Positions 29,014 through 63,886 of a DNA stretch of 64,000 nucleotides are shown here, one piece after another. The stretch is from a virus (taxonomy: Duplodnaviria > Caudoviricetes). The notes under the pieces were generated by a model. That model ran no database searches. It was not told the origin of the DNA and saw only the letters and a program-made list of their open reading frames with translations. The stretch is from IMG/VR virus record IMGVR_UViG_3300034061_003631, positions 11 through 64,010 of that record; one strand, 5' to 3'. The number at the start of each line of letters is the position of its first letter. Position 1 is the stretch's first letter. The translations under genes were made by a program, and so were the position numbers.

Positions 29014-29021
29014 AAAATTAT

Positions 29022-35903: not shown

Positions 35904-35940
35904 TATATTACTATTTAGTGAAAATTACCTAAATAATTTT

Positions 35941-48666: not shown

Positions 48667-51600
48667 ATGACTAAAAAAGGTTGCTGCTGTAAAGAAGAAA
48701 ATTCAAATGTAAAACATTATATTGCTGTAAGATGTTTCGAATATGAAACAGAGTTTTACGAGCAACCAAAAATACATAATGTTTATGATTCTTTTCCAAG
48801 TAATTCTAGAATTTTTGGTCTTGGCGATGAACCTGATTTTCCTTATAGAGTAACCGGATTAGATTCTGGAAACAGTTTACTTGTAATAGAAAAAGATCCA
48901 TCAAGAAAAATTAAATTTATGTTAAAAGGTGGTGGCGGTGGCGCACCATTTGATTCATTTGGCGGCAATGCTGCTTATATTGATTTTAATGTAATTCCAT
49001 TTAGTGAAAGTAAATTAAATTCAATGTCACTATTTGTTGGTGCTGGTGGCACCGGTGGTCCGCATTTTGATTTTAGAAATACCACACCATTATATGGTGG
49101 TGGCCCTGGGTTTGGATTTGCTGGATGGGGAGGAGGTGCGGCTGCTTATGGTGATAGCGTTCAATCTTTACAAGCAGGTGGCCAATATGTTGTTGGTTCT
49201 GGTGGCGGTGCGGGAGCAGATATAGATACAAATACCAGATATGGTGGACATGGTGGCGTTTCGGATGGAGAGGCTGGTGATGGTCTGTTTGGCGGAGGTT
49301 CAGCATCAAGCACTGCGCCTGGATTGGGCGGCGGTGCTGGAGGATTTGGGGGCGGATTTAGAATTGGTGGCCTTGGATTTAGATTCAGTCCTCCACCATC
49401 GTTTCCAGTTAGTGTAGTTGGTGGAGGTGGAGGCTCAGGGGTTTTTGGTGGCGGTGGTGGAGGTTCAAATAGTTCTGGGGGCGGAGGAGCTTCTACCGTA
49501 GCTGATATATTTTCTAATAAACCAATTGACAACGGATTCGATGGGACATTCAGAGGTCCCGGTAGTCGCTGTAGTCCGTTTTTTAGTAAAACAATGGATG
49601 CTGGTTTGGGTGCTAATAGACCTGGAAGATTTATAGAAAATTTAGATACTGTATATACTTCATTGTATAACGGAGGAAACGCCCAAGCAGCAGAATATCA
49701 CAGAACAAGGTGGTGTCCTTGTTTTGAAAGCCAAGTATCAAATATTGATAATTCTACTGGTTATTTTTCAAATGGGTTAAACTATATTTGTTTAACAGAA
49801 GGACAATATAATCTTATAATTGCCCAGACACTTTCTTTACCAGACTATAATAATATCTTTGCTGCGGGAGCAGGTTATGTAAAAACTTCTTTTGTTTTAA
49901 ACGGAGCAAGGTATATTTTATTGCCATGGGAAGAGGATATTTATGGTGATCCAACTGCAAATCATTATTATTGCAGCGTAGGATGTGAAAATGATTATAT
50001 TGCTAATGGAATACCAACAGATGTAAAATGGTACGTTTCAACACAATATAATTTTGCAAATTATTCAGATTCAAGAAATTTTTTCAAAAATCTATACTTA
50101 TCATATGGTATGGATCTATCCTCAGTAACAAGTTGCTGTGATATTTTTATCGGTGAAAGAATTTGTTTTCCAGAAAATTCATCAAACTGTTCAAATTCTG
50201 TAGATCAAGATGGAAATGTATATGGATGTTATTGTCAAAATGTAGAAACACCACCAAAGTATAAATCTATATGCCGTTCACAAGTTTCTACAGATAGTCC
50301 ATTTATAGCGGTAGATCCCGATTCCCAATTTTATTATCTCTGCATTCCAGCATTTGGTTGGAGCAGATTTGGATCAGAAACCGTAAATGGGCTTTTCAAT
50401 TATTCTGATGGCATTAATGATGAAAATAAAATAAATTTGGGAAGCGATTTACAATATTTTAGTGATCCACCATCATTAGAAATTGAAGAGTTGAGACAAT
50501 TGCTTTGTGAGCAGACGCAAACTGGACCTGGTGGCGAATGCAATAAAAATCCAGATCAAGATTGTGTATGCAGAGTAATTGTAAGCCGACCATATGAAGA
50601 ACAGGATCCCGAAGGAATAAACGCTCCTATTACATTTACTCACACAGGTGGTATAGTTTGTTCAAGAGATCTATATGGATCAGGTCCAAATTCTTGTGAA
50701 ACATGTCCAGAAGAAACAGCCCAACCACTTCCTCTTGATGATAATACTTTTAGTTTTCAAAAATGCACACAACCTTCTATATGTGAAATAACTGGTTGCT
50801 ATACAATAGATCCAAGTATACCAAATTGTGGACCAACAAATCCACAACAATGTGGTGAGTGTACAGATCCTTGTTCTGGCGATCCCATTCTTTTGACAAA
50901 AAAAGCCTTCGCCACATTTAAAAAATTGTTTTCATTCTTTGAAACAAATTTATATAGAGCAGGCAATCTACTTTTAAATCCAAATACATCAACAGTAAGC
51001 AAAATACAAGTACCGCCATTAAATCCTTGCGATGTAATTCCCGGTGAATGTCAATTTGCAGGTACTTTTATTGGTTATAAATCAAAAATTGAAAGAAATA
51101 GTTGCCCACCTGATAATTGGATTCAGTCACAAACTTGTAAAGATTGTGGATGTATAAAAGAACAAACACAAACTGTATTGCGCTGCAGTGCAACCGATTT
51201 AATAAAAGAAGAAAAATCTTGGGAAACCTGGATGTGTGTTTTGATACAAGAATCTACAGCCAATAATGGTGAAGATTATTATGAAGGCACAGCAATGGAA
51301 ATTACTTTAAATCCTTGCTTGTTTGCCGGTTTGACACCTGTAGAAGCTTTAGCAAAAGCAACACAACTTATAAAATTAGAAGAAAAATCTATACAAACTT
51401 CTTTATGTGGTGAAGAACAAATAACAATAAATGGGTATCGTTTAACTGCATGTCTTCTCTGCTTGGACTTAGCTAGTTCTTCAGCCTCTGATGCAGCTGC
51501 ATATATAAATGCCTGTGTGGGTGGATTTGCTTATGCAACTGTTTTAGATGATTTGGCCTGGTTTGGTGAAAGAAGAATGAATTGTAATGTATGCGAAGAA

Positions 51601-52281
51601 TTTAAAAAGAGACCCGGTGATATTTTTGAAATAGAATATTCTCTTTACAATGGTGGTGTAAAAGCTACAATTAAATTTAAATCAAAAAAATACGAAGCAT
51701 GCGTTCTTGTAAAAAGCAACCCAGTCTGCGATACCCAATTGGGAGGCAGTGCTGATGACTGCTATAATTTTGTATTGTCTGAAACAAAAGGCAATATATT
51801 TGTTCAATATAAAAGTAACGAAGCTGTGAGTTATCCTGAGTGGGCAAATGGGACTCGTTGGGAATTTACAACAATTTCTGGTGATGGAGAAAACCCAAAT
51901 TTTCAAGCTTGCGCACCCTTTAATGAACAAATAGGTCCGCAAGACTGTATATTATACAAAAGATCTGATTGTGTTTATAGAAAACCAGATCTTGAAGGGT
52001 ATACAGGAAAATGTTGTACAATTAACACAAATTGTTCGGACAATGAAATAGAGTGCACAAGCATTAATAGCATTGGAGATTATTGTACTTTTTGTGAAAA
52101 TCAACAATGCACAAGTTCTGGTAGTTGTTCTACAAATGGAGACGATGCTTGCTGCAATTTAGATCAACCACCAGATTGCCAATATCCTCCATGCACTCCT
52201 TTTCAAGGTTGCACTATAATTTCTTCACCAATTCCAAGTGATGTTTGCACTACACAAATAGGATCATTGTTTATTTTTTAA
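48667..52281 (+). CDS. Large Gly-rich / Cys-rich putative virion fibre or appendage protein
   Basis: TATAAATA upstream; starts MTKKGCCC; poly-Gly domain at about aa 90-290; dozens of Cys in the remainder. Confidence 0.7.
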   Translation: MTKKGCCCKEENSNVKHYIAVRCFEYETEFYEQPKIHNVYDSFPSNSRIFGLGDEPDFPYRVTGLDSGNSLLVIEKDPSRKIKFMLKGGGGGAPFDSFGGNAAYIDFNVIPFSESKLNSMSLFVGAGGTGGPHFDFRNTTPLYGGGPGFGFAGWGGGAAAYGDSVQSLQAGGQYVVGSGGGAGADIDTNTRYGGHGGVSDGEAGDGLFGGGSASSTAPGLGGGAGGFGGGFRIGGLGFRFSPPPSFPVSVVGGGGGSGVFGGGGGGSNSSGGGGASTVADIFSNKPIDNGFDGTFRGPGSRCSPFFSKTMDAGLGANRPGRFIENLDTVYTSLYNGGNAQAAEYHRTRWCPCFESQVSNIDNSTGYFSNGLNYICLTEGQYNLIIAQTLSLPDYNNIFAAGAGYVKTSFVLNGARYILLPWEEDIYGDPTANHYYCSVGCENDYIANGIPTDVKWYVSTQYNFANYSDSRNFFKNLYLSYGMDLSSVTSCCDIFIGERICFPENSSNCSNSVDQDGNVYGCYCQNVETPPKYKSICRSQVSTDSPFIAVDPDSQFYYLCIPAFGWSRFGSETVNGLFNYSDGINDENKINLGSDLQYFSDPPSLEIEELRQLLCEQTQTGPGGECNKNPDQDCVCRVIVSRPYEEQDPEGINAPITFTHTGGIVCSRDLYGSGPNSCETCPEETAQPLPLDDNTFSFQKCTQPSICEITGCYTIDPSIPNCGPTNPQQCGECTDPCSGDPILLTKKAFATFKKLFSFFETNLYRAGNLLLNPNTSTVSKIQVPPLNPCDVIPGECQFAGTFIGYKSKIERNSCPPDNWIQSQTCKDCGCIKEQTQTVLRCSATDLIKEEKSWETWMCVLIQESTANNGEDYYEGTAMEITLNPCLFAGLTPVEALAKATQLIKLEEKSIQTSLCGEEQITINGYRLTACLLCLDLASSSASDAAAYINACVGGFAYATVLDDLAWFGERRMNCNVCEEFKKRPGDIFEIEYSLYNGGVKATIKFKSKKYEACVLVKSNPVCDTQLGGSADDCYNFVLSETKGNIFVQYKSNEAVSYPEWANGTRWEFTTISGDGENPNFQACAPFNEQIGPQDCILYKRSDCVYRKPDLEGYTGKCCTINTNCSDNEIECTSINSIGDYCTFCENQQCTSSGSCSTNGDDACCNLDQPPDCQYPPCTPFQGCTIISSPIPSDVCTTQIGSLFIF

Positions 52282-52299: not shown

Positions 52300-53028
52300 A
52301 TGAGCTATCAAAATAATACAACTTTAGTTTTACCAAAAGTAGTTACTTGCAAAGAAAAGGGAATCAATCTTCCAGTTATAAATTGTGAACATTGGGAAGC
52401 AAAAGATAATTGCAATCCTGTTTGCAAATTAAATCTTGTAGACTCTCCAGATTATAAAAAATGCAAAGATTGCAAAGAAAGAAAACCAATTAAAAGTGAA
52501 ACTATGGAAAATTATAAAAGAAAAGAGTTTGTTAATATTAATGAAAATGTAAGACAAACTTTAGAAGCACAATCAAAAAAATTGCAAGAAATACAAGAGA
52601 AGTTTGCAAAGCAAAAAAAAGAACAAGAAGAAAAAATATTAAATGAAAAATCATTTTTAGATAAAGCAGTTTCATATCTAAAAGCAGAATCATCACAAGC
52701 CACACAGGGCAAAATATCAAATAGCAACTTTGAAAAGAGAAAAGAAATATGTATGAGTTGCCCCTTTAAAGTAAACGATGTTCTATTAAAAAATGGAACA
52801 ACGGCTCACGATTCTGTTGGATGGTGTAAGGGTGGATGCGGCTGTAGTGTTGGTTCCGAAAGAGCCGCCTTGTCAACCAAACTTTACATGCCAACGTTAT
52901 CTTGTCCAAAAGGAAAATTTGGTGTCGAAAAGGGAGCTGGTTTTGAAATTTCTGATGCCGTAGATTCCGCAAAAGGAATTTTAACTTCAGCAATTAGTAT
53001 TTTTAAGAAACCTCAGACAGATAAATAA
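52300..53028 (+). CDS. Cys-rich hypothetical protein
   Basis: CEHW...C...CKDC; RKEICMSCP...WCKGGCGC...LSCPKGKF. Confidence 0.7.
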   Translation: MSYQNNTTLVLPKVVTCKEKGINLPVINCEHWEAKDNCNPVCKLNLVDSPDYKKCKDCKERKPIKSETMENYKRKEFVNINENVRQTLEAQSKKLQEIQEKFAKQKKEQEEKILNEKSFLDKAVSYLKAESSQATQGKISNSNFEKRKEICMSCPFKVNDVLLKNGTTAHDSVGWCKGGCGCSVGSERAALSTKLYMPTLSCPKGKFGVEKGAGFEISDAVDSAKGILTSAISIFKKPQTDK

Positions 53029-53032
53029 TTAC

Positions 53033-53560
53033 ATGCTCAAATTTAAAGACTTTTTGTTAAATGAAGATCTTGGTATCGGCCCAGAAGGAACAGCAAACAA
53101 TCCTTCTATTAAAAATTATTTGGATTCGCTAAGAAAAGAAAAAAAAGATCTAGTTCAACAAAAAAAATTAACTGTAAATAACCCAGAAGAAAAAGAAAGA
53201 TTGTCTGATTTACTTAATCAAAAACAACAAGAAATTTATCAAACTCAAATTTTAAGTAATCCACAAACTTCTACTACTACTCCAAGTTTGCCAACACCAC
53301 AGCTCAGTACTTCTTTAGGGTCACCAGCTGGAAAGGAAAGTGCTTTTGATAAACTTATAAAAGGCAAAACAGTTTCAACTATTGGATCATCGTCACCAAC
53401 ACCATCTCTTGCTTCTCCAGCTTTGAGTACAGCCACACCATCTCCTGAAAGCTCAATTTATTCAGGATATAAAGTTTTTAACAATTTAATAAGCAGCATA
53501 ACAAACCCTCAATTAGATATTGAAGTTTTAGGCAAAACTTCTAAAAACATAAGATTATAA
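53033..53560 (+). CDS. Late protein with capsid-targeting-like N-terminus and Ser/Thr/Pro-rich tail
   Basis: MLKFKDFLLNE; GATAAATA just upstream. Confidence 0.65.
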   Translation: MLKFKDFLLNEDLGIGPEGTANNPSIKNYLDSLRKEKKDLVQQKKLTVNNPEEKERLSDLLNQKQQEIYQTQILSNPQTSTTTPSLPTPQLSTSLGSPAGKESAFDKLIKGKTVSTIGSSSPTPSLASPALSTATPSPESSIYSGYKVFNNLISSITNPQLDIEVLGKTSKNIRL

Positions 53561-53568
53561 ATATTTTT

Positions 53569-54030
53569 ATGAATTACCTTCTAAATTATTATAAAAATAT
53601 TTGTGAAAAATACCAACAAAAAATTATTATTTTACAAAATTATTTAAACGAGGTTGCTGAAAGTGGTATAAATGTTGCTGGCGGTGGTTTGGCCCAAGAA
53701 CCAATTCCTCAAGAAGGGGCACCAATCGGTATACCGGATATGCAAGGACCACGTGATCCATCCATTCCACCAAGTCCAATTGATTATTTTTATTGGTGTG
53801 AGGACGCTGGTTGTGATATCAATACTCCACCAGGTATAGGATTTTACGATAAAGATGGTGATGGTAAAATAAGTCCTGAAGAACGCCAAGAGTGGAATAT
53901 TGATACAGAGAGATGGCATCAACAAAAAAATTTATATACAAGACATTTTAAAGAGCATTCAAAATGGAAATCTAGCCAAAAAAGAAGAAGAGTTTCTTCT
54001 ATGGCAACAGATAGTCAATACTACTCATAA
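53569..54030 (+). CDS. Leader-cargo array member (YYKN leader)
   Basis: MNYLLNYYKNICEKYQQKIIILQNYLNE; TATAAATA upstream; DKDGDGKISPEE EF-hand-like loop. Confidence 0.75.
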   Translation: MNYLLNYYKNICEKYQQKIIILQNYLNEVAESGINVAGGGLAQEPIPQEGAPIGIPDMQGPRDPSIPPSPIDYFYWCEDAGCDINTPPGIGFYDKDGDGKISPEERQEWNIDTERWHQQKNLYTRHFKEHSKWKSSQKRRRVSSMATDSQYYS

Positions 54031-54048
54031 CAAATAAAATAAAATCAA

Positions 54049-54858
54049 ATGATAAATCCATTCAACGATCAATCAAATATTTTTATAAACCCATATGACA
54101 ATGCAATAAAAAAATTGCAAGAACAAAATCTTTTTAAATTCGAAGAAATATATAAAAAAAGATGTGATTTTTTAAATAAAAAAAATATAAAACTTAAAAA
54201 ATATTTAGAAGAAGCAACTTCGTCATTAAACGATAGAGAATTTGGGATTAATTATGATTCCGCAGTTAACAATACTAGCTCTTCTGCTAATTTAATGATG
54301 CCTAGCCCACCACCACCAAGTTGGTGGGGTGGAAAAAATAGAATTTCATGGAATTTCGAAAATATGCCAGATTGGTATAGAAAAATGTTTGGTAATACTA
54401 ATGATTTCTCCCCAGCACCTGCAGATCGCCCCAAAGTAGGCCCAAATGAACGTGGAGTAGATGTAGAAAAAGCACCCCGTGGCCCGGGATCAAATTTTAA
54501 TCATTATCCTGGAGCAGGACAGAAAAGCAGTGGATTTTATAACGGCTGGTACAAGCCACCAAAAGAATTTCCTGTATATAGCCATCAATCATCAGTGCAC
54601 ACTATATTTAACTTAGACCGTTCAAGATATGTAACTACTTTGGATGGACAAGACTTACCACAGGGTGTATTTGCAGATACTCAACCACCATATTGGCTTT
54701 GGACTTTAGGCGCACCAACACCACAATATCCACAAGGTGTACCATATTGGTTGGATATGAATGGAGGCGCTGAGAATATGGGAGTTTGGCAGATGGCAAG
54801 TCAAGGTAGTCCGGGATATTTGAATCCTTGGGGAATATTTTTACAAAATCCGAACTAA
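54049..54858 (+). CDS. Leader-cargo array member; cargo paralogous to 54868
   Basis: EEIYKKRCDFLNKKNIKLKKYLEE then ATSSLNDREFGINYDSAVN...PPPPSWWGGKNR. Confidence 0.75.
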   Translation: MINPFNDQSNIFINPYDNAIKKLQEQNLFKFEEIYKKRCDFLNKKNIKLKKYLEEATSSLNDREFGINYDSAVNNTSSSANLMMPSPPPPSWWGGKNRISWNFENMPDWYRKMFGNTNDFSPAPADRPKVGPNERGVDVEKAPRGPGSNFNHYPGAGQKSSGFYNGWYKPPKEFPVYSHQSSVHTIFNLDRSRYVTTLDGQDLPQGVFADTQPPYWLWTLGAPTPQYPQGVPYWLDMNGGAENMGVWQMASQGSPGYLNPWGIFLQNPN

Positions 54859-54861
54859 AAT

Positions 54862-55637
54862 ACTAAAATGCTTTTTTATCAATCCGACATTAATAATACT
54901 ATTTCAAAAATTTTTATTAAAAAATATTTAAAAGAAGCATATTCGTCAATAAATGATAGAGAATTTGGAATTAATTATGATTCCGCAGTCAACAGTACTA
55001 GCTCTTCTGCTAATTTAATGATGCCTAACCCACCACCACCAAGTTGGTGGGGTGGAAAAAATAGACTTTCACAGTGGTTCGCTGGTGAACGAATGCCAGA
55101 TTGGTATAGAAGAATGTTTGGTTATGGTGATCCCCCAGCAGATCGCCCTAGATTAGGCTCAAGTGAACGTGGAGTAGAGAGAGCACCCCGTGGCCCGGGA
55201 TCAAATTTTAGTCATAACCCTCTTATATTTCGTAAACCGGGTGGACAATATAATGGCTACTGGTTGCCACCAAAAGAATTTCCTGTGTATAGCCACCAAG
55301 CAGAAGCACACACTTTATTGGGCTTAGACCGATCAAGATTTTTAACTACTTGGGAAGGACAAGCATTACCACAAGGTGTATTTGTAGATAGTCATGGACC
55401 ACCACATTTATTCTGGACTTTAGGGGCACCAACACCAGATTACCCAGAAGGTGTACCATATTGGATAGATTATGCTGGAGAATTTACTCCTGATAATCCA
55501 GGAGTATGGCGCATGATAAATCCGGAGCTACCGGGAAATCCTTGGGGAATTCAACCACCAGATTATAACCCCAACTAAATATACTAACTAAAATGCTTTT
55601 TTATCAATCCGACATTAATAATACTATTTCAAAAATT
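54862..55637 (+). repeat. 51-nt identical direct repeat at 54862-54912 and 55587-55637
   Basis: ACTAAAATGCTTTTTTATCAATCCGACATTAATAATACTATTTCAAAAATT in both. Confidence 0.9.
54868..55578 (+). CDS. Leader-cargo array member (MLFYQSD leader)
   Basis: MLFYQSDINNTISKIFIKKYLKE then AYSSINDREFGINYDSAVN. Confidence 0.75.
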   Translation: MLFYQSDINNTISKIFIKKYLKEAYSSINDREFGINYDSAVNSTSSSANLMMPNPPPPSWWGGKNRLSQWFAGERMPDWYRRMFGYGDPPADRPRLGSSERGVERAPRGPGSNFSHNPLIFRKPGGQYNGYWLPPKEFPVYSHQAEAHTLLGLDRSRFLTTWEGQALPQGVFVDSHGPPHLFWTLGAPTPDYPEGVPYWIDYAGEFTPDNPGVWRMINPELPGNPWGIQPPDYNPN

Positions 55638-56252
55638 CTTCTTGAAAAATTATTAGATGATACACCAGATCCAAGACCTCTAAAACCAAAAACCCCTTGG
55701 ATGGTGGAAGGGGATTTTGTGTTTTATGGTGATCCGCCACCACCTCCTCCTTCTGGTGTCGGACAAGCACTTGAACTTATAAATGATTATGGTATAGGTT
55801 TTCATCCATACGACTGGTTTAATAATACAAATAATCAAAATACGACACAGGGCGAAATGCATCCAGCCATACAGTGGTTACTTGGTACAGTGGGTACTGC
55901 TGAAGGACCACTTTTATTGAGAGTATTGCAAGGATTGGCACCAATTCCTCTTGAATGGATTCCATATTTAGCGGCTTTGGGAGTATTGGTTGTTGGTGTC
56001 GGAGGTGCTATGTATATAACTGCTGAATCTGGACAAATAATTTTAAATAATTTACCAGGTTTGCAAGAAGTAGGCTCAGGTAATGCAACTGCTTTTCAAA
56101 GAATTGATGCACCTGTATACAATGATTCCATCTACCAAAACAGCGGTATCGATCCTTTGACGGGATTGCCTTGGAATGTGATTCCACCACCTCCCCCATC
56201 TTCTTCCGGTAATGATTCTTCTTCAGGAGATGGTATAGCAGTAATACCTTAA
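55593..56252 (+). CDS. Leader-cargo array member (MLFYQSD leader) with hydrophobic segment
   Basis: MLFYQSDINNTISKILLE; WIPYLAALGVLVVGVGGAMYI. Confidence 0.75.
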   Translation: MLFYQSDINNTISKILLEKLLDDTPDPRPLKPKTPWMVEGDFVFYGDPPPPPPSGVGQALELINDYGIGFHPYDWFNNTNNQNTTQGEMHPAIQWLLGTVGTAEGPLLLRVLQGLAPIPLEWIPYLAALGVLVVGVGGAMYITAESGQIILNNLPGLQEVGSGNATAFQRIDAPVYNDSIYQNSGIDPLTGLPWNVIPPPPPSSSGNDSSSGDGIAVIP

Positions 56253-56285
56253 AGTTTTTATATATTTTGTTTTATAAATACTTTC

Positions 56286-56990
56286 ATGGATTATTTGACA
56301 AAATATTATAAAAATTTAGCTGAAGAGCTTCAACAAAAATGTAACAAACTTTATTTAACTTTAAATGAAGTTGCTTCACCAGTTCAATTAATGCCAGGGC
56401 AGGGTCCTGGTACTCTTGAAGGCGATCCAAATTATAGATTTGTTGGTGGTGTGGAATCCGCAGGTGATAGCGTAAGACCACAATTAATGCAATGGAACAA
56501 CAATGCACAAGTTTGGAAAACTAATTTTTATAATAGTGGTTACGCAAATGCTCCTTGGAATAATTGGGCAAGTTGGATAAATGCACTATACCAATATTGG
56601 AATAATAATGCATTTTGGAATGCAGGAATGCAAGATTTTATGGTTGGGTTGTTTGGTGATGGCTACAATTATCAATTTTTGCCAAATGGCGATATTCTTT
56701 TTACAGAAGAAATGAAACAAATTGCATATAATTGCATACAATCAATGGTTCAAGCAGGCAGTCAATCGCCAAACCAAAATGCTTCTAACGCTGCAGCACA
56801 ATCTGTATTTAATTATTTCCAAGAACAATATGGAATAAAAACATACCCGTGGTACAACGGAGAGTTTGCTCCATTCTTTACAAACTATTATCTACCAGGA
56901 GCAACTTCATTCCCACCCACACCACCGTGGCAATGGAATCCCGGTATGGGACTTCCTTTTGCAAATGCACCAACCGTTCCTGCGCCATAA
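56286..56990 (+). CDS. Leader-cargo array member (MDYLT leader)
   Basis: MDYLTKYYKNLAEELQQKCNKLYLTLNE; TATAAATA upstream. Confidence 0.78.
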   Translation: MDYLTKYYKNLAEELQQKCNKLYLTLNEVASPVQLMPGQGPGTLEGDPNYRFVGGVESAGDSVRPQLMQWNNNAQVWKTNFYNSGYANAPWNNWASWINALYQYWNNNAFWNAGMQDFMVGLFGDGYNYQFLPNGDILFTEEMKQIAYNCIQSMVQAGSQSPNQNASNAAAQSVFNYFQEQYGIKTYPWYNGEFAPFFTNYYLPGATSFPPTPPWQWNPGMGLPFANAPTVPAP

Positions 56991-57001
56991 TATATAACAA
57001 C

Positions 57002-57460
57002 ATGAAATACGAAGAATATTATTACAAAAATCTTTGTGAAAAGTATCAAAAAAGAATTGATATTCTTGAAAGATATCTTTCTGAGGCTGGACTAAAGAAA
57101 GCTTTAAAGACCGGAAAGCCAGAACTTCTTGCAAAAGAAGGTATAAAGCAAGGCGAAAGAAGAGAACGGCTTCTTTCAACTGCCACGGAAATGGGTCAAA
57201 GAGCTTCAGATAGTGCTCGCAAATATGGTCCAATGAGCAAACAAGTAGGTGCTGCTGGTCTACAGCAACAAGCTGCTCTTTCAAGCGCACAACAAATTGG
57301 ACAAAATATCGAAGATATTGATATACAACTGGCTTCAGAAGATCCAGAGCTAAGAAAGCGTTCAAGCGGAATGTATATGAGACAATCAATGCTGGGACCA
57401 GATGTATTCCCAGAAAGACCAATGCAAGATTATCCTCATGTTGGTTCGGCACAATATTAA
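57002..57460 (+). CDS. Leader-cargo array member
   Basis: Start taken at ATG 57002: MKYEEYYYKNLCEKYQKRIDILERYLSE. Confidence 0.75.
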   Translation: MKYEEYYYKNLCEKYQKRIDILERYLSEAGLKKALKTGKPELLAKEGIKQGERRERLLSTATEMGQRASDSARKYGPMSKQVGAAGLQQQAALSSAQQIGQNIEDIDIQLASEDPELRKRSSGMYMRQSMLGPDVFPERPMQDYPHVGSAQY

Positions 57461-57468
57461 ATAAATTT

Positions 57469-58014
57469 ATGGACTACCTAACAAATCATTACAAAAATTT
57501 ATCGGAACAACTGCAAAACAAAATAAACATTTTGCAAAAAGTTTTATTAGAATCTGATATGCCACCAGTTGGTCCAGACATAGAGGGTATTGGTGATACT
57601 GCACCAATAACATCCAGAAAAGAATTTCAAGATAATGGTTTGTGGATCACACCAACTAACTGGCAAGGTCTTTATAATCAATGGCAAAAATTAAGAAACG
57701 GACCAGTTCCAAACTGGTTCCTTGCCGAATATTGGGGAGGGCTTCAATCAAATGGTGGGACTTGGGGATCAGTAGCAGATGCTTGGGACAATTTCTGCGC
57801 ACAATTGTTGGGAGCAATAAGCAGAGCTGGTCAATACAATAATCCAGAAATATACTGGGACATTCAAAGCCAGTGGCAGTATTATACAGCCCAAGCAAAT
57901 AATGGTCAACCACTACCATTCCCCGTACGACACGGTGGACGCTACACTCCACAAATTGGCATGCACCAAGTAGGCGGAAGAATAAATTATATTGAACCAC
58001 ATCCAAATATGTGA
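57469..58014 (+). CDS. Leader-cargo array member (MDYLT leader)
   Basis: MDYLTNHYKNLSEQLQNKINILQKVLLE. Confidence 0.78.
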   Translation: MDYLTNHYKNLSEQLQNKINILQKVLLESDMPPVGPDIEGIGDTAPITSRKEFQDNGLWITPTNWQGLYNQWQKLRNGPVPNWFLAEYWGGLQSNGGTWGSVADAWDNFCAQLLGAISRAGQYNNPEIYWDIQSQWQYYTAQANNGQPLPFPVRHGGRYTPQIGMHQVGGRINYIEPHPNM

Positions 58015-58046
58015 TTATTATTCAATAATTCAAAAACAAAAAATAA

Positions 58047-58074
58047 GGGTCCCCAAAAGGGACCCAAATTTTTT
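58047..58074 (+). terminator. Intrinsic terminator
   Basis: GGGTCCC-CAAAA-GGGACCC followed by AAATTTTTT. Confidence 0.7.
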
Positions 58075-58096
58075 GTTAAAATTTTTATAACAATAT

Positions 58097-58633
58097 ATCT
58101 ATCTAAATATTCTTATGGATTATTTGACAAACTATTACAAAAATCTCTGCGAGCAACTTCAAAATAAACTAAATTATCTGGAACAAATGATCGCAGAGGC
58201 CAGACGGGGAACCGTCATGGTAGATGTAGATGACATCGAACGCGACGAGGGAGGTGACAGTATCATCGTCGGCAGACTCGCATCAGGCAAGGGTGCCAAA
58301 ACCGAAAGAACGATCACCTTCTACCCACAAAAAGAGCATGACATGGATGACTACCGCAATGCAGCCAAAATCGGCGCAGAGCCAATGGAAATTCGTTCAA
58401 ACGAGATCATGCACGAACCAAGGGAAAGAGGACACAATGTACGTGGCGCAGGCGCAAAGAGAGTAAAGAAAGAAATCGCACAGCACGGCGCAGAACTCAA
58501 GAAGCCAATGAGCGAACGCGGCGAAATCAGCTTCGACGCAAGAAACGCCCGTCGCCAAGCAAACAGATAATTTTTATACGAATAAATCTATCTAAATATT
58601 CTCATGGATTATTTGACAAACTATTACAAAAAT
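58097..58633 (+). repeat. 48-nt direct repeat (late promoter plus leader start) at 58097-58144 and 58586-58633
   Basis: ATCTATCTAAATATTCTYATGGATTATTTGACAAACTATTACAAAAAT, one mismatch between copies. Confidence 0.9.
58115..58570 (+). CDS. Leader-cargo array member (MDYLT leader)
   Basis: MDYLTNYYKNLCEQLQNKLNYLEQMIAE; cargo DNA more GC-rich than the leader. Confidence 0.78.
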   Translation: MDYLTNYYKNLCEQLQNKLNYLEQMIAEARRGTVMVDVDDIERDEGGDSIIVGRLASGKGAKTERTITFYPQKEHDMDDYRNAAKIGAEPMEIRSNEIMHEPRERGHNVRGAGAKRVKKEIAQHGAELKKPMSERGEISFDARNARRQANR

Positions 58634-59005
58634 TTATGTGAACAATTACAACATAAAGTGAATAAGCTTTCTTTTACAAGAAAATTGTTAAATGAAAGTG
58701 ATACCCCCACCCAATTTCCAGTTCAAGATAAACCAGGCGGTCCTTTGTATGTGCCCGGGAATCCTTATTGGGAACCAGCTCGGCCACCAATTCGGCCATC
58801 AGTTTGGCCACAAGATTGGCGACATCCTGGCGGAATAATTGATCATGAATACCCGACTCTGCCTACTCTGCCTCCTTACCCTGTCTGGGAACATGATAGT
58901 GACCCCCCTCCAGGTTGGGATGGATGGTGGCCCGATGCCCCACCCGGTGATCCAAGAAGTATTCCACCTGATACTTGGCCTCGTAAACCCCCCGCTGTAG
59001 GATAA
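58604..59005 (+). CDS. Leader-cargo array member (MDYLT leader), Pro/Trp-rich cargo
   Basis: MDYLTNYYKNLCEQLQHKVNKLSFTRKLLNE. Confidence 0.78.
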   Translation: MDYLTNYYKNLCEQLQHKVNKLSFTRKLLNESDTPTQFPVQDKPGGPLYVPGNPYWEPARPPIRPSVWPQDWRHPGGIIDHEYPTLPTLPPYPVWEHDSDPPPGWDGWWPDAPPGDPRSIPPDTWPRKPPAVG

Positions 59006-59034
59006 CATAATACTTTAAAATTTTTCGAATAAAC

Positions 59035-59068
59035 TTTTGGGCTCCTTCCGGGGGCCCAAAATTTTTTT
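59035..59068 (+). terminator. Intrinsic terminator closing the array
   Basis: TTTTGGGCTCC-TTCC-GGGGGCCCAAAA followed by T7. Confidence 0.75.
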
Positions 59069-59269
59069 AGGGCATACCATGTATTTTAAGGTTTGGGGTG
59101 GAGGGGGGTGGCCAAAAAATTTTTAGACCATCAAGGATATTTGAAAAAATTTGAGAAAATTTGAGAGGGACGGGGAGCTAGCCGTTTTTATCGGACGCCG
59201 CCAGATGGGACCCAAATTACTACTCGGACACCGCTAAAATAACTAAAATAATTTTTTCAAATAACTTTG

Positions 59270-59304
59270 AAAACAAAGATGCCCCCGCCTTCGGCGGGGG
59301 CATC
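59270..59304 (-). terminator. Intrinsic terminator of the minus-strand early gene
   Basis: GATGCCCCCGC-CTTCG-GCGGGGGCATC, followed by TTTGTTTT on the minus strand. Confidence 0.75.
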
Positions 59305-59317
59305 TGGTGGGCTGGGG

Positions 59318-59461
59318 TTACTGGCCCCAGTACCAGTCCCAGTAGGTGTCCTCCTCTGGGGCCTCGGCGTATTCCCTTTCTTCGTCCGGATTCGCGTTGC
59401 GCTTGGCGAGACGAATCTCAACGGGGCGGGTGGTTTCTTCGATGTGGGTGGTGCTGTCCAT
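59318..59461 (-). CDS. Small leaderless early protein (47 aa)
   Basis: TTGACA-N17-TATCAT-N6-ATG; MDSTTHIEETTRPVEIRL...WDWYWGQ. Confidence 0.65.
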   Translation of the reverse strand: MDSTTHIEETTRPVEIRLAKRNANPDEEREYAEAPEEDTYWDWYWGQ

Positions 59462-59467
59462 ACGCGT

Positions 59468-59496
59468 ATGATACCAGATACCTGCGTGTATGTCAA
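59468..59496 (-). promoter_or_regulatory. Early sigma70-type promoter
   Basis: TTGACA-N17-TATCAT. Confidence 0.8.
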
Positions 59497-59558
59497 CCCT
59501 CAAAGTAAAACACCACCCAAATTTTTGGGTGGTGTGGCTAAGGGGTAGGCGGTGGGCT

Positions 59559-59885
59559 TTACATCTCGCCCCATCCCGCGCTCGCTAGCCAGTCGTTGTC
59601 TGCGTCCCAGTCCTCGCGGCTCATCCGGCTAGCCGCATCGCTGAACGCTTGGTTGTCGGCATCGCGCTCCGCGTCATCCTGCGCCTTGCGCTCCTCGCCG
59701 TACCCGGCGATCTCCCATCGGTTCTCACGGGAACCCGTGGGCTTGGCCTCGCGCTTCGCCTCGCGCTCCCGCTCCTCCTGCTCCTCGCAGGAGGGGCACG
59801 GGCGATCATCGTAGGCGTACTCCGGGCGGTGGCACTGGCAGGGGAAGTGTTCGTGTTCGTGGTTGTGGGTGGTGCTGTTGTGCAT
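59559..59885 (-). CDS. Leaderless early protein with His/Cys metal-binding N-terminus
   Basis: MHNSTTHNHEHEHFPCQCH...RPCPSC; ATG 6 nt after the -10 box. Confidence 0.7.
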   Translation of the reverse strand: MHNSTTHNHEHEHFPCQCHRPEYAYDDRPCPSCEEQEEREREAKREAKPTGSRENRWEIAGYGEERKAQDDAERDADNQAFSDAASRMSREDWDADNDWLASAGWGEM

Positions 59886-59891
59886 GGCGGT

Positions 59892-59920
59892 ATGATACCA
59901 TGCCTCGCCTTCCTTGTCAA
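59892..59920 (-). promoter_or_regulatory. Early sigma70-type promoter
   Basis: TTGACA-N17-TATCAT. Confidence 0.8.
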
Positions 59921-59957
59921 GCCCTTCGTAGAATATTTTTTTCTTTGTTCCTACCCC

Positions 59958-59986
59958 TTGACAGCGTAGGCGGAGTCTGGTACAAT
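59958..59986 (+). promoter_or_regulatory. Early sigma70-type promoter
   Basis: TTGACA-N17-TACAAT. Confidence 0.85.
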
Positions 59987-59992
59987 CCACCC

Positions 59993-60187
59993 ATGAGCAC
60001 CACTCTCCGCATCGCTTCCATCGTCTCCGTTCTCTGCGTCATCCTCTCCGCGTTCCTTGCCTTCGGGCTTGCCTACAACGGCGACTACATCCGCGCCACG
60101 GTCTGCCTTGCCTTCTGCGGCTTTGGTGTTCTGTTGTGGCGGCTCACCGACATGGCGGACGAAGAGTACTACCGGGGTATGAAATAA
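59993..60187 (+). CDS. Leaderless small membrane protein (two predicted TM segments)
   Basis: MSTTLRIASIVSVLCVILSAFLAFGLAY...TVCLAFCGFGVLLW. Confidence 0.7.
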   Translation: MSTTLRIASIVSVLCVILSAFLAFGLAYNGDYIRATVCLAFCGFGVLLWRLTDMADEEYYRGMK

Positions 60188-60339
60188 CTGGGTGGTGCCA
60201 GTAACAGCCGAAGAGGATTCGTTCCCTGCCCCGATTCGTTCGGGGCTAGGTTGTTTTAAGCTACTATCAGCGTGGGAGGGCCACGCTGATAGTTGTTACC
60301 GGACGCGAAGAAATATTAGAATATTCTCGCCGCTGGGGG

Positions 60340-60368
60340 TTGACTGGACGGGCGGCGTCTGGTACAAT
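60340..60368 (+). promoter_or_regulatory. Early sigma70-type promoter
   Basis: TTGACT-N17-TACAAT. Confidence 0.85.
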
Positions 60369-60374
60369 TCGGGC

Positions 60375-60938
60375 ATGAACAGCACCACCACCCACCGTTA
60401 CCTCACCGTCCGCAACCGCGCCACCGAATCTTTCATCGGGCTTCTCGCCCAGGCTACGCTCTTCGACCTCCACGCTGCCGAGCGTTGGTACTCCGAGGCG
60501 CAGGGCTTCGCTAACTCGCTGCGCCCGATGACCGGATGGAACATGGAAGTCGCCGCGTCCGTTGTCTCCGCGTTCTCGCCCCGCGTTACTTGGGCGCACA
60601 ACAAGGCAAAGGCGACGCAGTACGCGCAGGGGATCGCCCCGAAGGGTCTTCGCTCCCATGTCGCTGCGGCGGATCGCTGCATCGTGGAAGGCTTCAACGG
60701 TCTGCGCGGTCTGAAGACGAATGCGTTCGCCCGTGCTATCGCGGGTGATCCTAACGCGGTCGTGGTGGATGTGTGGATGTGCCGCGCTGCGGGTCTGTGC
60801 AAGGACGCGCCGAACGCGACCGAGTACCGTGCCATCGCGGACGCGATCACCGCCATCGCGGGTACGCCGACCGTGAACATGGCACCTGCCACGCTTCAGG
60901 CTCTGCTGTGGATCATCGTCCGGGGCAAGGCGGACTAA
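60375..60938 (+). CDS. Leaderless early protein, DUF7178-like (HhH/glycosylase-like fold suspected)
   Basis: RWY...SAFSPRVTWAHN...GLKTNAF...VVVDVWMCRA...LQALLWI. Confidence 0.6.
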   Translation: MNSTTTHRYLTVRNRATESFIGLLAQATLFDLHAAERWYSEAQGFANSLRPMTGWNMEVAASVVSAFSPRVTWAHNKAKATQYAQGIAPKGLRSHVAAADRCIVEGFNGLRGLKTNAFARAIAGDPNAVVVDVWMCRAAGLCKDAPNATEYRAIADAITAIAGTPTVNMAPATLQALLWIIVRGKAD

Positions 60939-61095
60939 GGGCGGAGGCTGGGAAATAACCGAAAAGGATTCGTCCCTGCCCCGATTCGTTCGGGGCTAGG
61001 TTATTATTGGACAACTATCAAATTTGGCTTTAAGCGGCCAAATTTGATAGTAGACGGGACGGACGGATTATTTTTTATTTTTTCCACCCTACCCC

Positions 61096-61124
61096 TTGAC
61101 AGGACGCCACCTGCGCGGTACAAT
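61096..61124 (+). promoter_or_regulatory. Early sigma70-type promoter
   Basis: TTGACA-N17-TACAAT. Confidence 0.85.
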
Positions 61125-61130
61125 ACGCGC

Positions 61131-61406
61131 ATGAGCACCTCCTCCACCATCGTCCTTGACACCCCCGCACAGATCAACGCCTTCCGCGCCCACACCCTCC
61201 GCATCGGTCTGGAGTCCGAGATCAAGCACAACATGCGCCTGACCGGAAAGGCTCCTTCCTGCTACAGCATCATCAAGCGGGAACTGGGCTTCAAGGGCAA
61301 CAAGGTTCGCGTCTACGCCCAGTACGTCCTCTGGATGGGCGAGAAGGGTCTGCTCGACATCACCCCCACGGATCGGGCGACCCTGACGGCGTGGGCAGTC
61401 AAGTGA
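61131..61406 (+). CDS. Leaderless early hypothetical protein
   Basis: MSTSSTIVLDTPAQINAFR...SCYSIIKRELGFKGNK. Confidence 0.72.
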   Translation: MSTSSTIVLDTPAQINAFRAHTLRIGLESEIKHNMRLTGKAPSCYSIIKRELGFKGNKVRVYAQYVLWMGEKGLLDITPTDRATLTAWAVK

Positions 61407-61451
61407 CCAGGAGGGGGAGGAGAGAATAAAAAAAATATTCTCTCCTCCCCC

Positions 61452-61480
61452 TTGACTTTCGCACCCCAAACTGATACAAT
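61452..61480 (+). promoter_or_regulatory. Early sigma70-type promoter
   Basis: TTGACT-N17-TACAAT. Confidence 0.85.
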
Positions 61481-61486
61481 ACCGAC

Positions 61487-61711
61487 ATGAGCACCACCAA
61501 GACCGTCAAGATGATCCCCAGCGGAGTTTCCGACCGCTACGCCTACGCCTACGGCTACCTCTCCGGCTGCATGAGGAATGTGGAGTACGCCGTGCAGCAG
61601 ATGCGCCGCCGCGATGACCCCGAGTGGGTGGCATTGTGGATGCACGAAATTCAGCGCGAGATCGCCTCCTTCAAGGCAATGGACGACGCCCTCCACAACG
61701 AACACGACTAA
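61487..61711 (+). CDS. Leaderless early hypothetical protein
   Basis: MSTTKTV...YAYAYGYLSG. Confidence 0.72.
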   Translation: MSTTKTVKMIPSGVSDRYAYAYGYLSGCMRNVEYAVQQMRRRDDPEWVALWMHEIQREIASFKAMDDALHNEHD

Positions 61712-61783
61712 AGGGTGGTGCTAGGGGGGCGGATGACTTGTTGTCTCCGCCCTCCACCCGACCCCCAACAAGAAAGAAAAAAA

Positions 61784-62077
61784 ATGAACGCAACCGAATC
61801 ACTCGCGAAACTCATTCGTACGGCCCTCTCCAACGGGGAGACTGTGCGAGTCTCGTTCCTAAAGGTGGACGGCACCCTCGCCGTTGACCGTCAGATCACC
61901 CGGAACATGATCGTCATTCCAAAGGACAAGCACCCGAAGTTTGTCCGTGGTGAGAACCCCGACTACATCACCGGGTTCGACATCAAGAAGGGTGACTGGA
62001 TTCGCTTTCACAAGGACAATGTCCGCAGCTGCATGGAATTCAGCCGTGCCGCAGAAAACATGGCTTTTGCCTCTTGA
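61784..62077 (+). CDS. SH3/WYL-like (DUF2693-type) beta-barrel protein
   Basis: VRVSFLKVDGT...ITRNMIVIP...FDIKKGDWIRF; start at MNATES after an A-rich leader. Confidence 0.65.
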   Translation: MNATESLAKLIRTALSNGETVRVSFLKVDGTLAVDRQITRNMIVIPKDKHPKFVRGENPDYITGFDIKKGDWIRFHKDNVRSCMEFSRAAENMAFAS

Positions 62078-62102
62078 CACTCGCACCACAGTTCGGTACA
62101 AT
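62074..62102 (+). promoter_or_regulatory. Early sigma70-type promoter
   Basis: TTGACA-N17-TACAAT. Confidence 0.85.
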
Positions 62103-62108
62103 ACCGCC

Positions 62109-62462
62109 ATGAACAGCACTACCCCCAAGCGTCTGCCCATCGTTGATGACCTCGTTCGCTCCCTGATGGTCTGCGCGTCCACGATCAAGGAGATCAAGGA
62201 TCAGCCGGATGAGGTCAACTGCTCTCTCGCCTTCTGTGAGGTTGCCGTGAGCCTTCCTCCTGCTTGGTTCAGCCTCCCGGAGCGTCTGCTCATCGTGAGC
62301 GTGATTCAGGAACTCACGGGCAAGAACGCGATTGAGTTCATCGACAACCTAGACGATGACTCCATCTCGTACTACAACAAGTGCCGCAGTCCAAACGGAA
62401 AGGACATCAACGAGGTGGTGGAGCAGATTTTCATGGCTCACGCCGCTGCGTTCCCCAATTAA
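62109..62462 (+). CDS. Leaderless early hypothetical protein
   Basis: MNSTTPKRLPIVDDL; ATG 6 nt after the -10 box. Confidence 0.72.
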   Translation: MNSTTPKRLPIVDDLVRSLMVCASTIKEIKDQPDEVNCSLAFCEVAVSLPPAWFSLPERLLIVSVIQELTGKNAIEFIDNLDDDSISYYNKCRSPNGKDINEVVEQIFMAHAAAFPN

Positions 62463-62669
62463 ATACAGTCCCCGACCTTGACCGGATACTGGGTCGCAAA
62501 CTAGGGCGCGTTGCAAGGCGTTCTAGCACGAAAGGATGACTGTGCCTTTCAAAACCTCTGACCCGTCCCTCTTTAGGGCGGGTCATGTTTATTTGACAAC
62601 TATCAAATCGCGTTTTTTCCGCGATTTGATAGTAGCCCGGACAATCTGAAAAAATATTTGCTTTACCAC

Positions 62670-62698
62670 TTGACACCCACCGGACGGCATGATACAAT
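62670..62698 (+). promoter_or_regulatory. Early sigma70-type promoter
   Basis: TTGACA-N17-TACAAT. Confidence 0.85.
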
Positions 62699-62704
62699 CC
62701 GCGC

Positions 62705-62959
62705 ATGACCTACCTTCCTTACAACAGCGACCCCGGTGAATACGACAACGAAACTCTCCCCTACGCCGATGGCTACAGCGAGGAGGACTTCGTGGCAGAA
62801 CTGATGTCCGAGGGCTACTCCGAGGACGAGGCTCGTCGCATGGCGGGTGACTACGATGCCGATGACTACAGCGGCAGCGAGGTTGACCTTGATCGGGATG
62901 TCCCCGAGATGGATGACTTCGATTCCGAGGACTTCGTTGACGAGGAGGACTTCGGATGA
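62705..62959 (+). CDS. Leaderless highly acidic small protein
   Basis: About 31 of 84 residues are D/E, no Lys. Confidence 0.72.
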   Translation: MTYLPYNSDPGEYDNETLPYADGYSEEDFVAELMSEGYSEDEARRMAGDYDADDYSGSEVDLDRDVPEMDDFDSEDFVDEEDFG

Positions 62960-63264
62960 TCGTCAAGGTAGAAGCAGCGTTCCCTGGAACCGTGAACCGT
63001 GGATGGACTACCCGCAGGTACAAGAAGTGTACTGGGAGCCTCCTCCATGCTCTGTCTCTCGCCTTCCCTAACGATGCAAGCATGATCGTCACCCTTGAGG
63101 TGAACCACACCTCCGGAATCGACAACTTCATCTACATGGTGGAGTTTCCGGAGGGAGCCAGAAGGCAGCAGGTTGACTTCTTCATCCGCCTCGCAAAACA
63201 AGTTAAACATTTCTACGCCGTGGACTTGATTTCCGCCCCCGAACCTGCTACAATACCCGCATGA
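62956..63264 (+). CDS. Hypothetical protein
   Basis: ATGA overlap with the upstream gene. Confidence 0.55.
   Translation: MIVKVEAAFPGTVNRGWTTRRYKKCTGSLLHALSLAFPNDASMIVTLEVNHTSGIDNFIYMVEFPEGARRQQVDFFIRLAKQVKHFYAVDLISAPEPATIPA
63226..63254 (+). promoter_or_regulatory. Early sigma70-type promoter
   Basis: TTGATT-N17-TACAAT. Confidence 0.75.
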
Positions 63265-63506
63265 GCAAGCACCGCCCCAACAAGCCAACCACTTGTGACA
63301 TCTCCGATCTCCTGAACGAGATCTACGCATTCGTGACGGAGAATCCCCTGTGGTACGAGGACGAGGATAGCCTTCTCAAGATGGGAATGGCACTCGCAGC
63401 ACTCAAGGCAATCAGCCAACCGGAAGATGTCACGCAGGAGGAGTACGACTTCTGCATCACCCTGTTCAACACCTTCAACGAAAGCGTTCGGAGCAACAAT
63501 GAGTAA
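63261..63506 (+). CDS. Leaderless early hypothetical protein
   Basis: MSKHRPNKP...ENPLWYEDED; ATG 6 nt after the -10 box. Confidence 0.7.
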   Translation: MSKHRPNKPTTCDISDLLNEIYAFVTENPLWYEDEDSLLKMGMALAALKAISQPEDVTQEEYDFCITLFNTFNESVRSNNE

Positions 63507-63855: not shown

Positions 63856-63880
63856 CAAACCCGCGCCCATCGGTTACAAT
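63852..63880 (+). promoter_or_regulatory. Early sigma70-type promoter
   Basis: TTGACA-N17-TACAAT, not followed by an ATG at +7. Confidence 0.8.
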
Positions 63881-63886
63881 GGGCAA

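Follow-up and report, generated by a model that had tools for sequence, protein, structure and literature searches.

A long N-terminal leader ending in [LI]-x-E, probably a new class of capsid-targeting propeptide, on diverse late proteins of an uncultured T4-like phage

What do ten consecutive phage genes share when their products are mostly unrelated beyond the first few dozen residues? The question is raised by positions 53033-59005 of the window, by which we mean the whole stretch of 64,000 nucleotides analysed here (positions 11 to 64,010 of record IMGVR_UViG_3300034061_003631). The window belongs to an uncultured phage known from a 64,010-base IMG/VR contig with an estimated completeness of 31% (CheckV). 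Six of the ten genes start with a long leader peptide that ends in [LI]-x-E, the motif after which the prohead protease gp21 of phage T4 cuts. We think it quite probable that this leader is a new, long class of capsid-targeting propeptide, which would be removed by the gp21-type protease of the phage while the cargo behind it stays in the head.

An array of ten genes with related leaders

As a preliminary description of this DNA had stated, the array consists of ten consecutive plus-strand open reading frames (ORFs), whose products measure 133-269 amino acids (aa) and have pI values from 4.1 to 9.0. In the following list CTS stands for capsid-targeting sequence.

53033-53560, plus strand: gene 1, 175 aa; 11-residue short leader (53033-53065) of the T4 CTS type, ending L-N-E; sole [LI]-x-E at residue 11
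53569-54030, plus strand: gene 2, 153 aa; long leader (53569-53652) ending Y-L-N-E at residue 28; orphan cargo
54049-54858, plus strand: gene 3, 269 aa; leader of the third type, followed by a degenerate stretch resembling the long leader; [LI]-x-E at residues 25 and 55 only
54868-55578, plus strand: gene 4, 236 aa; third-type leader in shortened form, ending Y-L-K-E at residue 23
55593-56252, plus strand: gene 5, 219 aa; leader ending L-L-E at residue 18; one internal [LI]-x-E at residue 159
56286-56990, plus strand: gene 6, 234 aa; long leader ending L-N-E at residue 28; Trp/Asn-rich orphan cargo
57002-57460, plus strand: gene 7, 152 aa; long leader ending L-S-E at residue 28; basic cargo of a recurrent family
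57469-58014, plus strand: gene 8, 181 aa; long leader ending L-L-E at residue 28; orphan cargo that retains a single internal [LI]-x-E (residue 87)
58115-58570, plus strand: gene 9, 151 aa; long leader ending I-A-E at residue 28; small beta-rich cargo domain of a recurrent family
58604-59005, plus strand: gene 10, 133 aa; long leader lengthened by an insertion of 3 residues (end L-N-E, residue 31); cargo with 22% Pro

Gene 7 was taken from the ATG at 57002; a longer frame starting with GTG at 56849 is also open. The six long-leader genes (2, 6, 7, 8, 9 and 10) align over their first 28-31 residues, with nine invariant positions (M1, Y3, Y8, K9, N10, E13, Q16, L22 and E28). Identity amounts to 47-67% in the leader vs 21-32% over the whole protein, and similarity collapses right after the final Glu. 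The preliminary description thus held for the shared leader and for the mostly unrelated cargoes, and likewise for a second leader on genes 4 and 5, whose first 15 residues are identical, and for a short form on gene 1. It failed for gene 3, said to carry an internal variant of the long leader: the internal stretch is only a weak profile match (independent E-value 19), and the true N-terminus of this protein is of the third leader type. The cargoes of genes 3 and 4 are paralogues (67% identical). Orthologues of gene 1, with the same leader, and of the gene 10 cargo are present in a related locus (L051).

The long leader in related loci and protein libraries

Back-translated leader patterns run on IMG/VR gave 104 confirmed relatives, of which 77 distinct loci were retained, and a leader profile was then run over every stop-to-stop frame of these loci and of the window. 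This returned 161 copies in 78 sources, in 157 of which a starting Met stands at profile position 1. The window and three of the loci have five or six copies each, and the large leader-bearing contigs hold 2-5 copies in several separate places. When a profile of 136 leaders was searched against 1.84 billion cluster representatives (50% identity), 818 sequence-distinct proteins matched at E<=1e-3 and 246 at E<=1e-10; among the best 150 of the 818 matches, 145 have the leader at residue 1. The leader pattern is far beyond chance, and the several N-terminal copies per genome and the 59 cargo clusters agree with the earlier expectation of many copies with unrelated C-termini. Each of ten library clusters that were looked up is named ‘hypothetical protein’ only. 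The DNA of the array is present almost word for word in 24 lake-water metagenome runs; no RNA run was among the matches listed. Among cultured phages (a collection of 50,697 records), megablast with the array gave no match, and tblastn with the proteins of genes 9 and 7 gave one chance-level match (E 0.7) and none, respectively.

Conservation is strong over residues 1-23 of the leader, where Leu, Ile or Val recur at heptad-like intervals, and the information content is at background after about residue 28; position 26 is L, I or V in 123 of 137 proteins. An AlphaFold2 model of the gene 9 product, made with a 17-row family alignment, has a single helix at residues 2-31 followed by strands at residues 33-94 (mean predicted local distance difference test score 73.4). 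The conserved leader residues are encoded by many synonymous codons, up to all six in the Leu columns, and selection therefore acts on the peptide and not on the DNA. A signal peptide was discounted, as the leader has no hydrophobic core, and so was the leader of a ribosomally synthesised and post-translationally modified peptide precursor, for which cargoes of 60-700 residues are far too long.

Three library proteins depart from the single-leader layout (P0001, P0003 and P0002): two carry tandem leaders, and in one a further, partial leader with an [LI]-x-E of its own lies in mid-protein, as though this chain would release two cargo units.

[LI]-x-E at the junction and its avoidance in the cargo

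That the leader ends in [LI]-x-E, as noted before for the window, applies to 137 of the 138 distinct leader proteins, in which the motif ends at residue 20-40, where conservation ends. The last such site lies mostly at residue 28 (59 proteins), 23 (32), 31 (19) or 27 (16). For proteins of at least 90 aa, the junction motif was present in 135 of 136, vs 51.4 +/- 5.4 when residues were shuffled within each protein and 83.5 +/- 4.0 (maximum 95 in 1000) in a column-shuffle control. The next two stretches of equal length beyond the junction contained the motif in 3 and 7 of the 136 proteins. In two recurrent cargo families an indel of five residues moves the end of the leader, and in both forms [LI]-x-E directly precedes the conserved start of the cargo. 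T4 gp21 is described as cleaving after L/I-X-E, first seen at a Glu-Ala bond (PMC9026906); here Ala occupies P1' in 52 of 137 proteins. A second site within the leader, L-[CS]-E at residues 11-13, was found in 133 of 136.

The cargo has the opposite composition. Counted from residue 41 to the end of the 138 proteins, it contains 68 [LI]-x-E, vs 158.5 +/- 11.8 in per-protein shuffles (z -7.7), and 36 vs 74.4 +/- 8.0 when one protein per cluster was used. The result was replicated on 148 library proteins (58 vs 157.5 +/- 11.6). Altogether the cargo holds 0.37-0.48 of the expected sites, and 95 of 138 cargoes have none. In the window, every gene of the array has [LI]-x-E within the first 55 residues, and later sites occur only in genes 5 and 8 (one each). 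Among the other ORFs of the leader-bearing loci, those with 150 residues or more are enriched in the motif (1237 vs 1015.5 expected). That the depletion is specific is evident from control motifs: [LI].D, [LI].Q, [LI].K, E.[LI], [LI]E and [LI]..E all reached or exceeded expectation in the cargo, and [VMF].E was mildly depleted. This is the pattern that selection would produce in proteins sharing a compartment with a Glu-specific [LI]-x-E protease and having to survive it, and we regard it as the strongest new evidence.

Short and third leader classes

Two further classes of leader accompany the long one. The CTS of T4 is the 10-residue MKTYQEFIAE (PMC8442874), in which positions 4 and 7 are important in targeting and positions 8 and 10 in processing (PMC9026906). 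Its features (an aromatic residue at 4 and 7, L/I at 8, Glu at 10) are missing from the six long leaders of the window and present in gene 1 and in 57 related-locus proteins. This short class, with 57 distinct proteins in related loci and gene 1 as its member in the window, has a leader of 10-11 residues of the form M-K-x-F-x-Q/E-F/Y-L/I-x-E, a pattern that gave 67 forward matches vs 0 in reversed sequences. The cargo behind it is depleted of [LI]-x-E as well (45 vs 92.1 +/- 8.9). The third type, also present in related loci, has five distinct members, gene 3 included.

Cargoes are exchanged between these classes. Nine proteins with a short or third-type leader have a cargo that matches a long-leader cargo (E<1e-6); one cargo is 80% identical over 129 residues behind a long or a short leader, and one cargo family was found behind all three types. 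The cargo family of gene 7, with 20 relatives in the collected sets, also stands behind a 23-residue leader and behind the short CTS, and that of genes 3 and 4 follows a short CTS-like leader in the library protein P0167. In close cargo pairs across leader types the join falls at [LI]-x-E. These sequence comparisons support the view that the leader types are equivalent.

Head genes of the same phage

The genes on which a capsid-targeting propeptide would depend lie in a minus-strand head module of T4 type, which also contains the portal gene (phrog_213, E 7.2e-186).

15817-17250, minus strand: gp23, major head protein (phrog_138, E 1.3e-146), with L-T-E at residues 53-55
17295-18356, minus strand: gp22-type scaffold core protein (phrog_237, E 1.5e-54), presumed docking target of the leader
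19120-19764, minus strand: gp21-type prohead protease (phrog_207, E 5.1e-81), presumed processing enzyme, with an L-T-E of its own at residue 9

The phage is a distant, uncultured relative of T4, since its gp23 is only about 54% identical to its closest cultured relatives, the cyanomyoviruses. The preliminary description had named the gp21 gene and a cleavage motif in gp23; gp21 stands here together with gp22 and gp23, and the L-x-E of gp23 is kept in 3 of 3 relatives. Homologues of gp21, 84-89% identical to that of the window, were found in three of five large leader-bearing contigs, all five of which are incomplete. The gp22-type protein has 11 [LI]-x-E sites vs 5.2 expected, the opposite of the cargo pattern and an excess that befits a protein meant for degradation. 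BLASTP detected no relation between the leader and gp22 (best E 0.19). A complex prediction for gp22 (4-row alignment) with the leader (136-row alignment) scored 0.00 in two runs against a mark of 0.32 and was counted neither way.

Three small proteins without PHROG family are encoded between portal and scaffold (18377-19120, 19774-20286 and 20293-20718, all on the minus strand). Two of them resemble proteins with a short propeptide, namely one of 247 residues, whose single [LI]-x-E at residue 14 is kept in the one relative found, and one of 170 residues with a single [LI]-x-E at residue 15. The protein of 141 residues has five such sites, like a degradable core protein. Directly upstream of the array, at 48667-52281 on the plus strand, lies a gene for a Gly- and Cys-rich protein of 1204 residues, again without PHROG family, which was placed outside the leader system because of its 11 internal [LI]-x-E sites.

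Promoters of the leader genes

Late-promoter cores and terminator-like hairpins of the array are as follows.

53022-53027, 53558-53563, 56275-56280, 57458-57463, 58104-58109 and 58593-58598, plus strand: TAAATA late-promoter cores of T4 type, each exactly 5 nt before the ATG of one of six genes
58047-58065, plus strand: terminator-like hairpin after gene 8
59035-59061, plus strand: terminator-like hairpin closing the array

Promoters of this kind had been reported for several genes of the array, and six of the ten indeed have one. The arrangement TAAATA-N5-ATG occurs 13 times in the window vs 2.24 +/- 1.36 in shuffles (shuffle maximum 6) and precedes 82 of 140 distinct leader genes elsewhere. 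It is also found at the portal gene and at other starts, e.g. 22272-22285 and 29011-29024 on the minus strand and 35930-35943 on the plus strand. The five bases between core and ATG contain almost no G and no Shine-Dalgarno sequence; with the distance from promoter to transcript start taken from general knowledge, this suggests that the late mRNAs are leaderless.

When genes and loci are compared, the DNA of promoter and leader together shows 73-94% identity across about 50-170 nt. By analogy with the promoter-early stem-loop elements (PeSLs) of T4-like phages (PMC2839356), this shared DNA is likely to be a substrate for module shuffling.

Diversity and identity of the cargo

The cargoes fell into 59 clusters among the 138 leader proteins, 37 of them singletons, and into 72 clusters among 146 library proteins. 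In the window, four of the six long-leader cargoes have at most one relative in the collected sets; two cargo families recur across many loci. Many cargoes are of low complexity, rich in Pro, Gly, Trp or Asn, or highly charged.

Domain searches remained nearly empty. The ten window proteins gave sub-threshold matches only against Pfam and PHROGs. Among 150 long-leader library proteins 147 had no Pfam family, and three isolated one-member matches were taken as chance; of ten large long-leader cargoes one matched DUF7178 and the others nothing above the cut-off. A Foldseek comparison of the gene 9 model with the PDB had none of the 706 listed matches at E<=0.001, and its weak rows resembling oligonucleotide/oligosaccharide-binding folds and single-stranded DNA-binding proteins are a lead at most.

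The short-leader cargoes were more informative. Ten were scanned, of which seven had no family; the remaining three are encoded in related loci.

L061:1169-1771: Alt-like ADP-ribosyltransferase
L061:627-1169: methyltransferase
L013:2361-2945: phage lysozyme

The first of these matches ADPrib_exo_Tox with 53.2 bits vs a cut-off of 23.4. The lysozyme, whose match is just above its cut-off, recurs in many loci; a head-packaged lysozyme would be unusual. In T4, Alt is described as an ADP-ribosyltransferase that is packaged via a propeptide and ejected (PMC9026906).

Stretches resembling calcium loops (D-x-D-G-D-G, EF-hand- or dockerin-like, below or near the Pfam cut-offs) were seen in unrelated cargoes, including gene 2 (residues 93-105, EF-hand-like, below the cut-off), L018:6001-7194 and several others.

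Strain variation and the adjoining GC-rich block

In all four lake runs examined, contigs break within 54302-55616, inside or between the paralogous genes 3 and 4, and two of the four have variant letters at 55467-55490. The array is a site of strain variation or assembly ambiguity. An apparent deletion variant joining 56290 to 57475, with the joint in three of four runs, was discounted: one of its sides is only 20 letters long and equals the shared leader.

Behind the array, 59270-64000 forms a block of 55-59% GC in a phage of otherwise about 33% GC, and summed contig depth changes from 7-41 before 59,223 to 28-239 after it. An assembly chimera at about 59.05 kb was considered and rejected, as the GC-rich block follows leader arrays in more than 20 related loci; compared with locus L012, e.g., it is 95.7% identical over 373 nt. 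An identical contig of 3,736 nt spans 55608-59343 in three of the four runs examined, which may include the source sample. The block is genuine phage DNA common to many relatives. One of its ORFs (60192-60938) matches phrog_3842.

Between 59.4 and 62.2 kb the block contains cassettes of the form TTGACA, 17-nt spacer, TACAAT, 6 nt, ATG, with five copies in 59958-62119 and minus-strand sites at 59496-59468 and 59920-59892. A 97%-identical stem-loop occurs twice in this region (60223-60255 and 60973-61005). The cassettes resemble early promoters of the PeSL type, but their -10 box abuts the start codon, and early mRNAs made from TACAAT-N6-ATG may be leaderless too. Late TAAATA-N5-ATG and abutting early promoters taken together suggest a wide use of leaderless mRNAs in this phage.

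Interpretation and alternative explanations

In the explanation that we favour, the products of the array are proteins of the head interior, synthesised late and bearing at the N-terminus a propeptide that would act as a CTS. The main leader, an amphipathic helix of 23-31 residues with heptad spacing, would dock onto the scaffolding core, i.e. gp22 and its companions, during prohead formation. The gp21 protease would then cut after the Glu of [LI]-x-E at the leader-cargo junction and probably also at the conserved L-[CS]-E of residues 11-13, and the mature cargo, purged of the motif, would stay intact in the head. The two other leader classes, one of them close to the T4 CTS, would do the same job in the same arrays; leaders and cargoes change partners as modules, probably through recombination within the promoter-plus-leader DNA common to them. 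Sequences and their comparison show the modular architecture, the junction motif and its avoidance in the cargo, the swapping of leaders and the placement of late promoters, and they show that the phage has gp21, gp22 and gp23; the idea of a new long capsid-targeting leader, put forward in the preliminary description, is supported by these features. By analogy with T4 we infer that the proteins bind to the core, are cleaved, stay in the head and are ejected together with the DNA; an anti-defence role of the cargoes would likewise follow T4 precedent (PMC3012670).

Several points weigh against this explanation. The case for presence in the virion, cleavage and ejection is indirect, and no cultured phage of the collection searched carries the leader. 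In sequence the long leader resembles neither the T4 CTS nor gp22, and the specificity of this gp21 is assumed from T4, with the conserved L-x-E in gp23 as sole support. One of the 138 leader proteins has no junction motif, and 43 of the 138 cargoes retain at least one [LI]-x-E, as do, with one internal site each, two cargoes of the window (genes 5 and 8). Many cargoes are acidic (pI 4.1-5.5 in five of the ten window genes), whereas T4 internal proteins are basic.

A more far-reaching version is offered only tentatively. The long leader would be a separate docking code, zipping onto the scaffold core as a coiled coil beside the short CTS and the third type and loading distinct sets, amounts or positions of cargo. 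The cargoes would then be hundreds of sequence-distinct, family-less host-takeover or anti-defence proteins injected by uncultured freshwater T4-like phages and shuffled between leaders by recombination.

The nature of the cargo may be read differently. The proteins could be targeted and trimmed as above and yet be structural or physical components of the head, such as core accessories, DNA-condensing or pressure-modulating filler or parts of an ejection channel, and not exchangeable effectors against host defence. We hold this to be rather unlikely, given an extreme turnover of cargo that would be unusual for structural parts (37 of 59 clusters singletons, four of six window cargoes with one relative at most) and the Alt-type enzymes among the short-leader cargoes of the same arrays. 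The low complexity or high charge of many cargoes speaks for a structural function, as do the 147 of 150 long-leader proteins without a Pfam family beside three isolated matches, the two families that recur across many loci like conserved components, a hydrophobic, membrane-helix-like stretch (by eye) in the cargo of gene 5, and the effect of T4 IPIII on head assembly (PMC9026906). A role of this structural or physical kind is a live alternative for many cargoes of low complexity.

Other explanations deny the removal of the leader or its function as a peptide. Its heptad pattern and single long helix could also belong to a permanent N-terminal coiled coil that anchors or oligomerises accessory proteins on the virion, be it at the head surface, the neck or the fibres, and conserved N-terminal anchors with variable C-termini occur in phage tailspikes and fibres. 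We consider such an anchor very improbable: it leaves unexplained the Glu-specific avoidance of [LI]-x-E in the cargo, the near-universal junction motif that persists despite indels, and the same cargo behind a T4-CTS-like 10-mer. Hardly any credence is given to the proposal that the shared 5' ends are conserved for nucleic-acid reasons only, as late-promoter recombination cassettes like PeSLs or as a translation signal of leaderless mRNAs, with a peptide devoid of function. The promoter core does abut the ATG at a fixed spacing without a Shine-Dalgarno sequence, promoter plus leader DNA is highly similar (73-94% over about 50-170 nt), and shuffling of the PeSL type is documented in T4-like phages (PMC2839356). 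Against it stand the many synonymous codons at conserved residues, a conservation that tracks the heptad and ends in a protease motif, and the avoidance of that motif in the cargo, which is a signal at the protein level; recombination more plausibly accounts for the spread of the modules than for the retention of the peptide.

If the long leader is indeed a capsid-targeting propeptide, the T4 principle would reach well beyond T-even coliphages and would make use of three or more leader forms that can replace one another. Packaged proteins could then be picked from metagenomes by a leader that starts at residue 1, [LI]-x-E at the junction and a body free of the motif, turning the head contents and injected proteins of environmental phages into a testable list, and the almost family-less cargoes would be a concentrated source of candidate proteins for host takeover or counter-defence. 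Heads of T4 type might also be loaded with foreign proteins by means of the long leader, which may be a second tag of greater length.

Comparison with known systems

In its logic the array recalls polymorphic toxin and effector systems, which likewise combine a constant delivery module with swappable C-terminal payloads in tandem arrays. These differ in being bacterial secretion substrates with far larger N-terminal domains and immunity genes, and their trafficking module is not removed by a capsid protease. A sequence relation to them was neither found nor expected in this comparison, which was made from general knowledge.

PeSLs of T4-like phages are similar in that a repeated promoter cassette precedes orphan genes in variable regions, where modular shuffling is likely (PMC2839356). 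As described there, they are early sigma-70 promoters with stem-loops outside the coding sequence, whereas the cassette of the array consists of a late TAAATA core and a translated leader; sigma-70-type cassettes occur only in the neighbouring GC-rich block and not in the array.

The inner-body and ejection proteins of giant phages (phiKZ, 201phi2-1, SPN3US) come closer. According to the accounts in PMC5694885 and PMC9026906, they have longer propeptides with several protease sites, form paralogue families with conserved N-termini and diverged bodies, and are cut after Glu by a gp21-related protease; the multiple sites are thought to break the propeptide into small pieces. The second site L-[CS]-E of the long leader, by analogy, recalls these multi-site propeptides. 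Giant-phage propeptides are, however, often longer than 100 residues, their motif is S/A/G-x-E and the paralogues are homologous throughout, whereas here most cargoes are unrelated and P3 of the junction is L or I, as in the T4 motif.

The nearest counterpart is T4 itself. A conserved CTS on diverse internal proteins is already established for T-even phages (PMC3012670), and in the main texts of the literature searched, CTS and cyanophage were brought together only in the review PMC9026906; the papers listed there for T4-like phages and metagenomes did not use the term ‘capsid targeting’. As these sources portray them, the T4 CTS proteins (IPI, IPII, IPIII and Alt) share with the array a propeptide at residue 1 that ends in L/I-x-E, the presence of gp21 and gp22 in the phage, and one conserved leader on diverse cargo expressed late. 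The likeness extends to the 10-residue near-T4 leader in the same arrays, which is also found on an ADP-ribosyltransferase, as with Alt. In contrast to T4, the main leader has 23-31 residues instead of 10-19, forms a heptad helix and lacks sequence similarity to the CTS; it contains a second conserved internal site and coexists with two further leader classes. The cargoes are far more numerous (818 sequence-distinct library matches), and many are acidic or of low complexity. The principle itself is thus known; new here are the long leader class, the three coexisting and exchanging leader classes, the scale, and the avoidance of the cleavage motif as a computational test.

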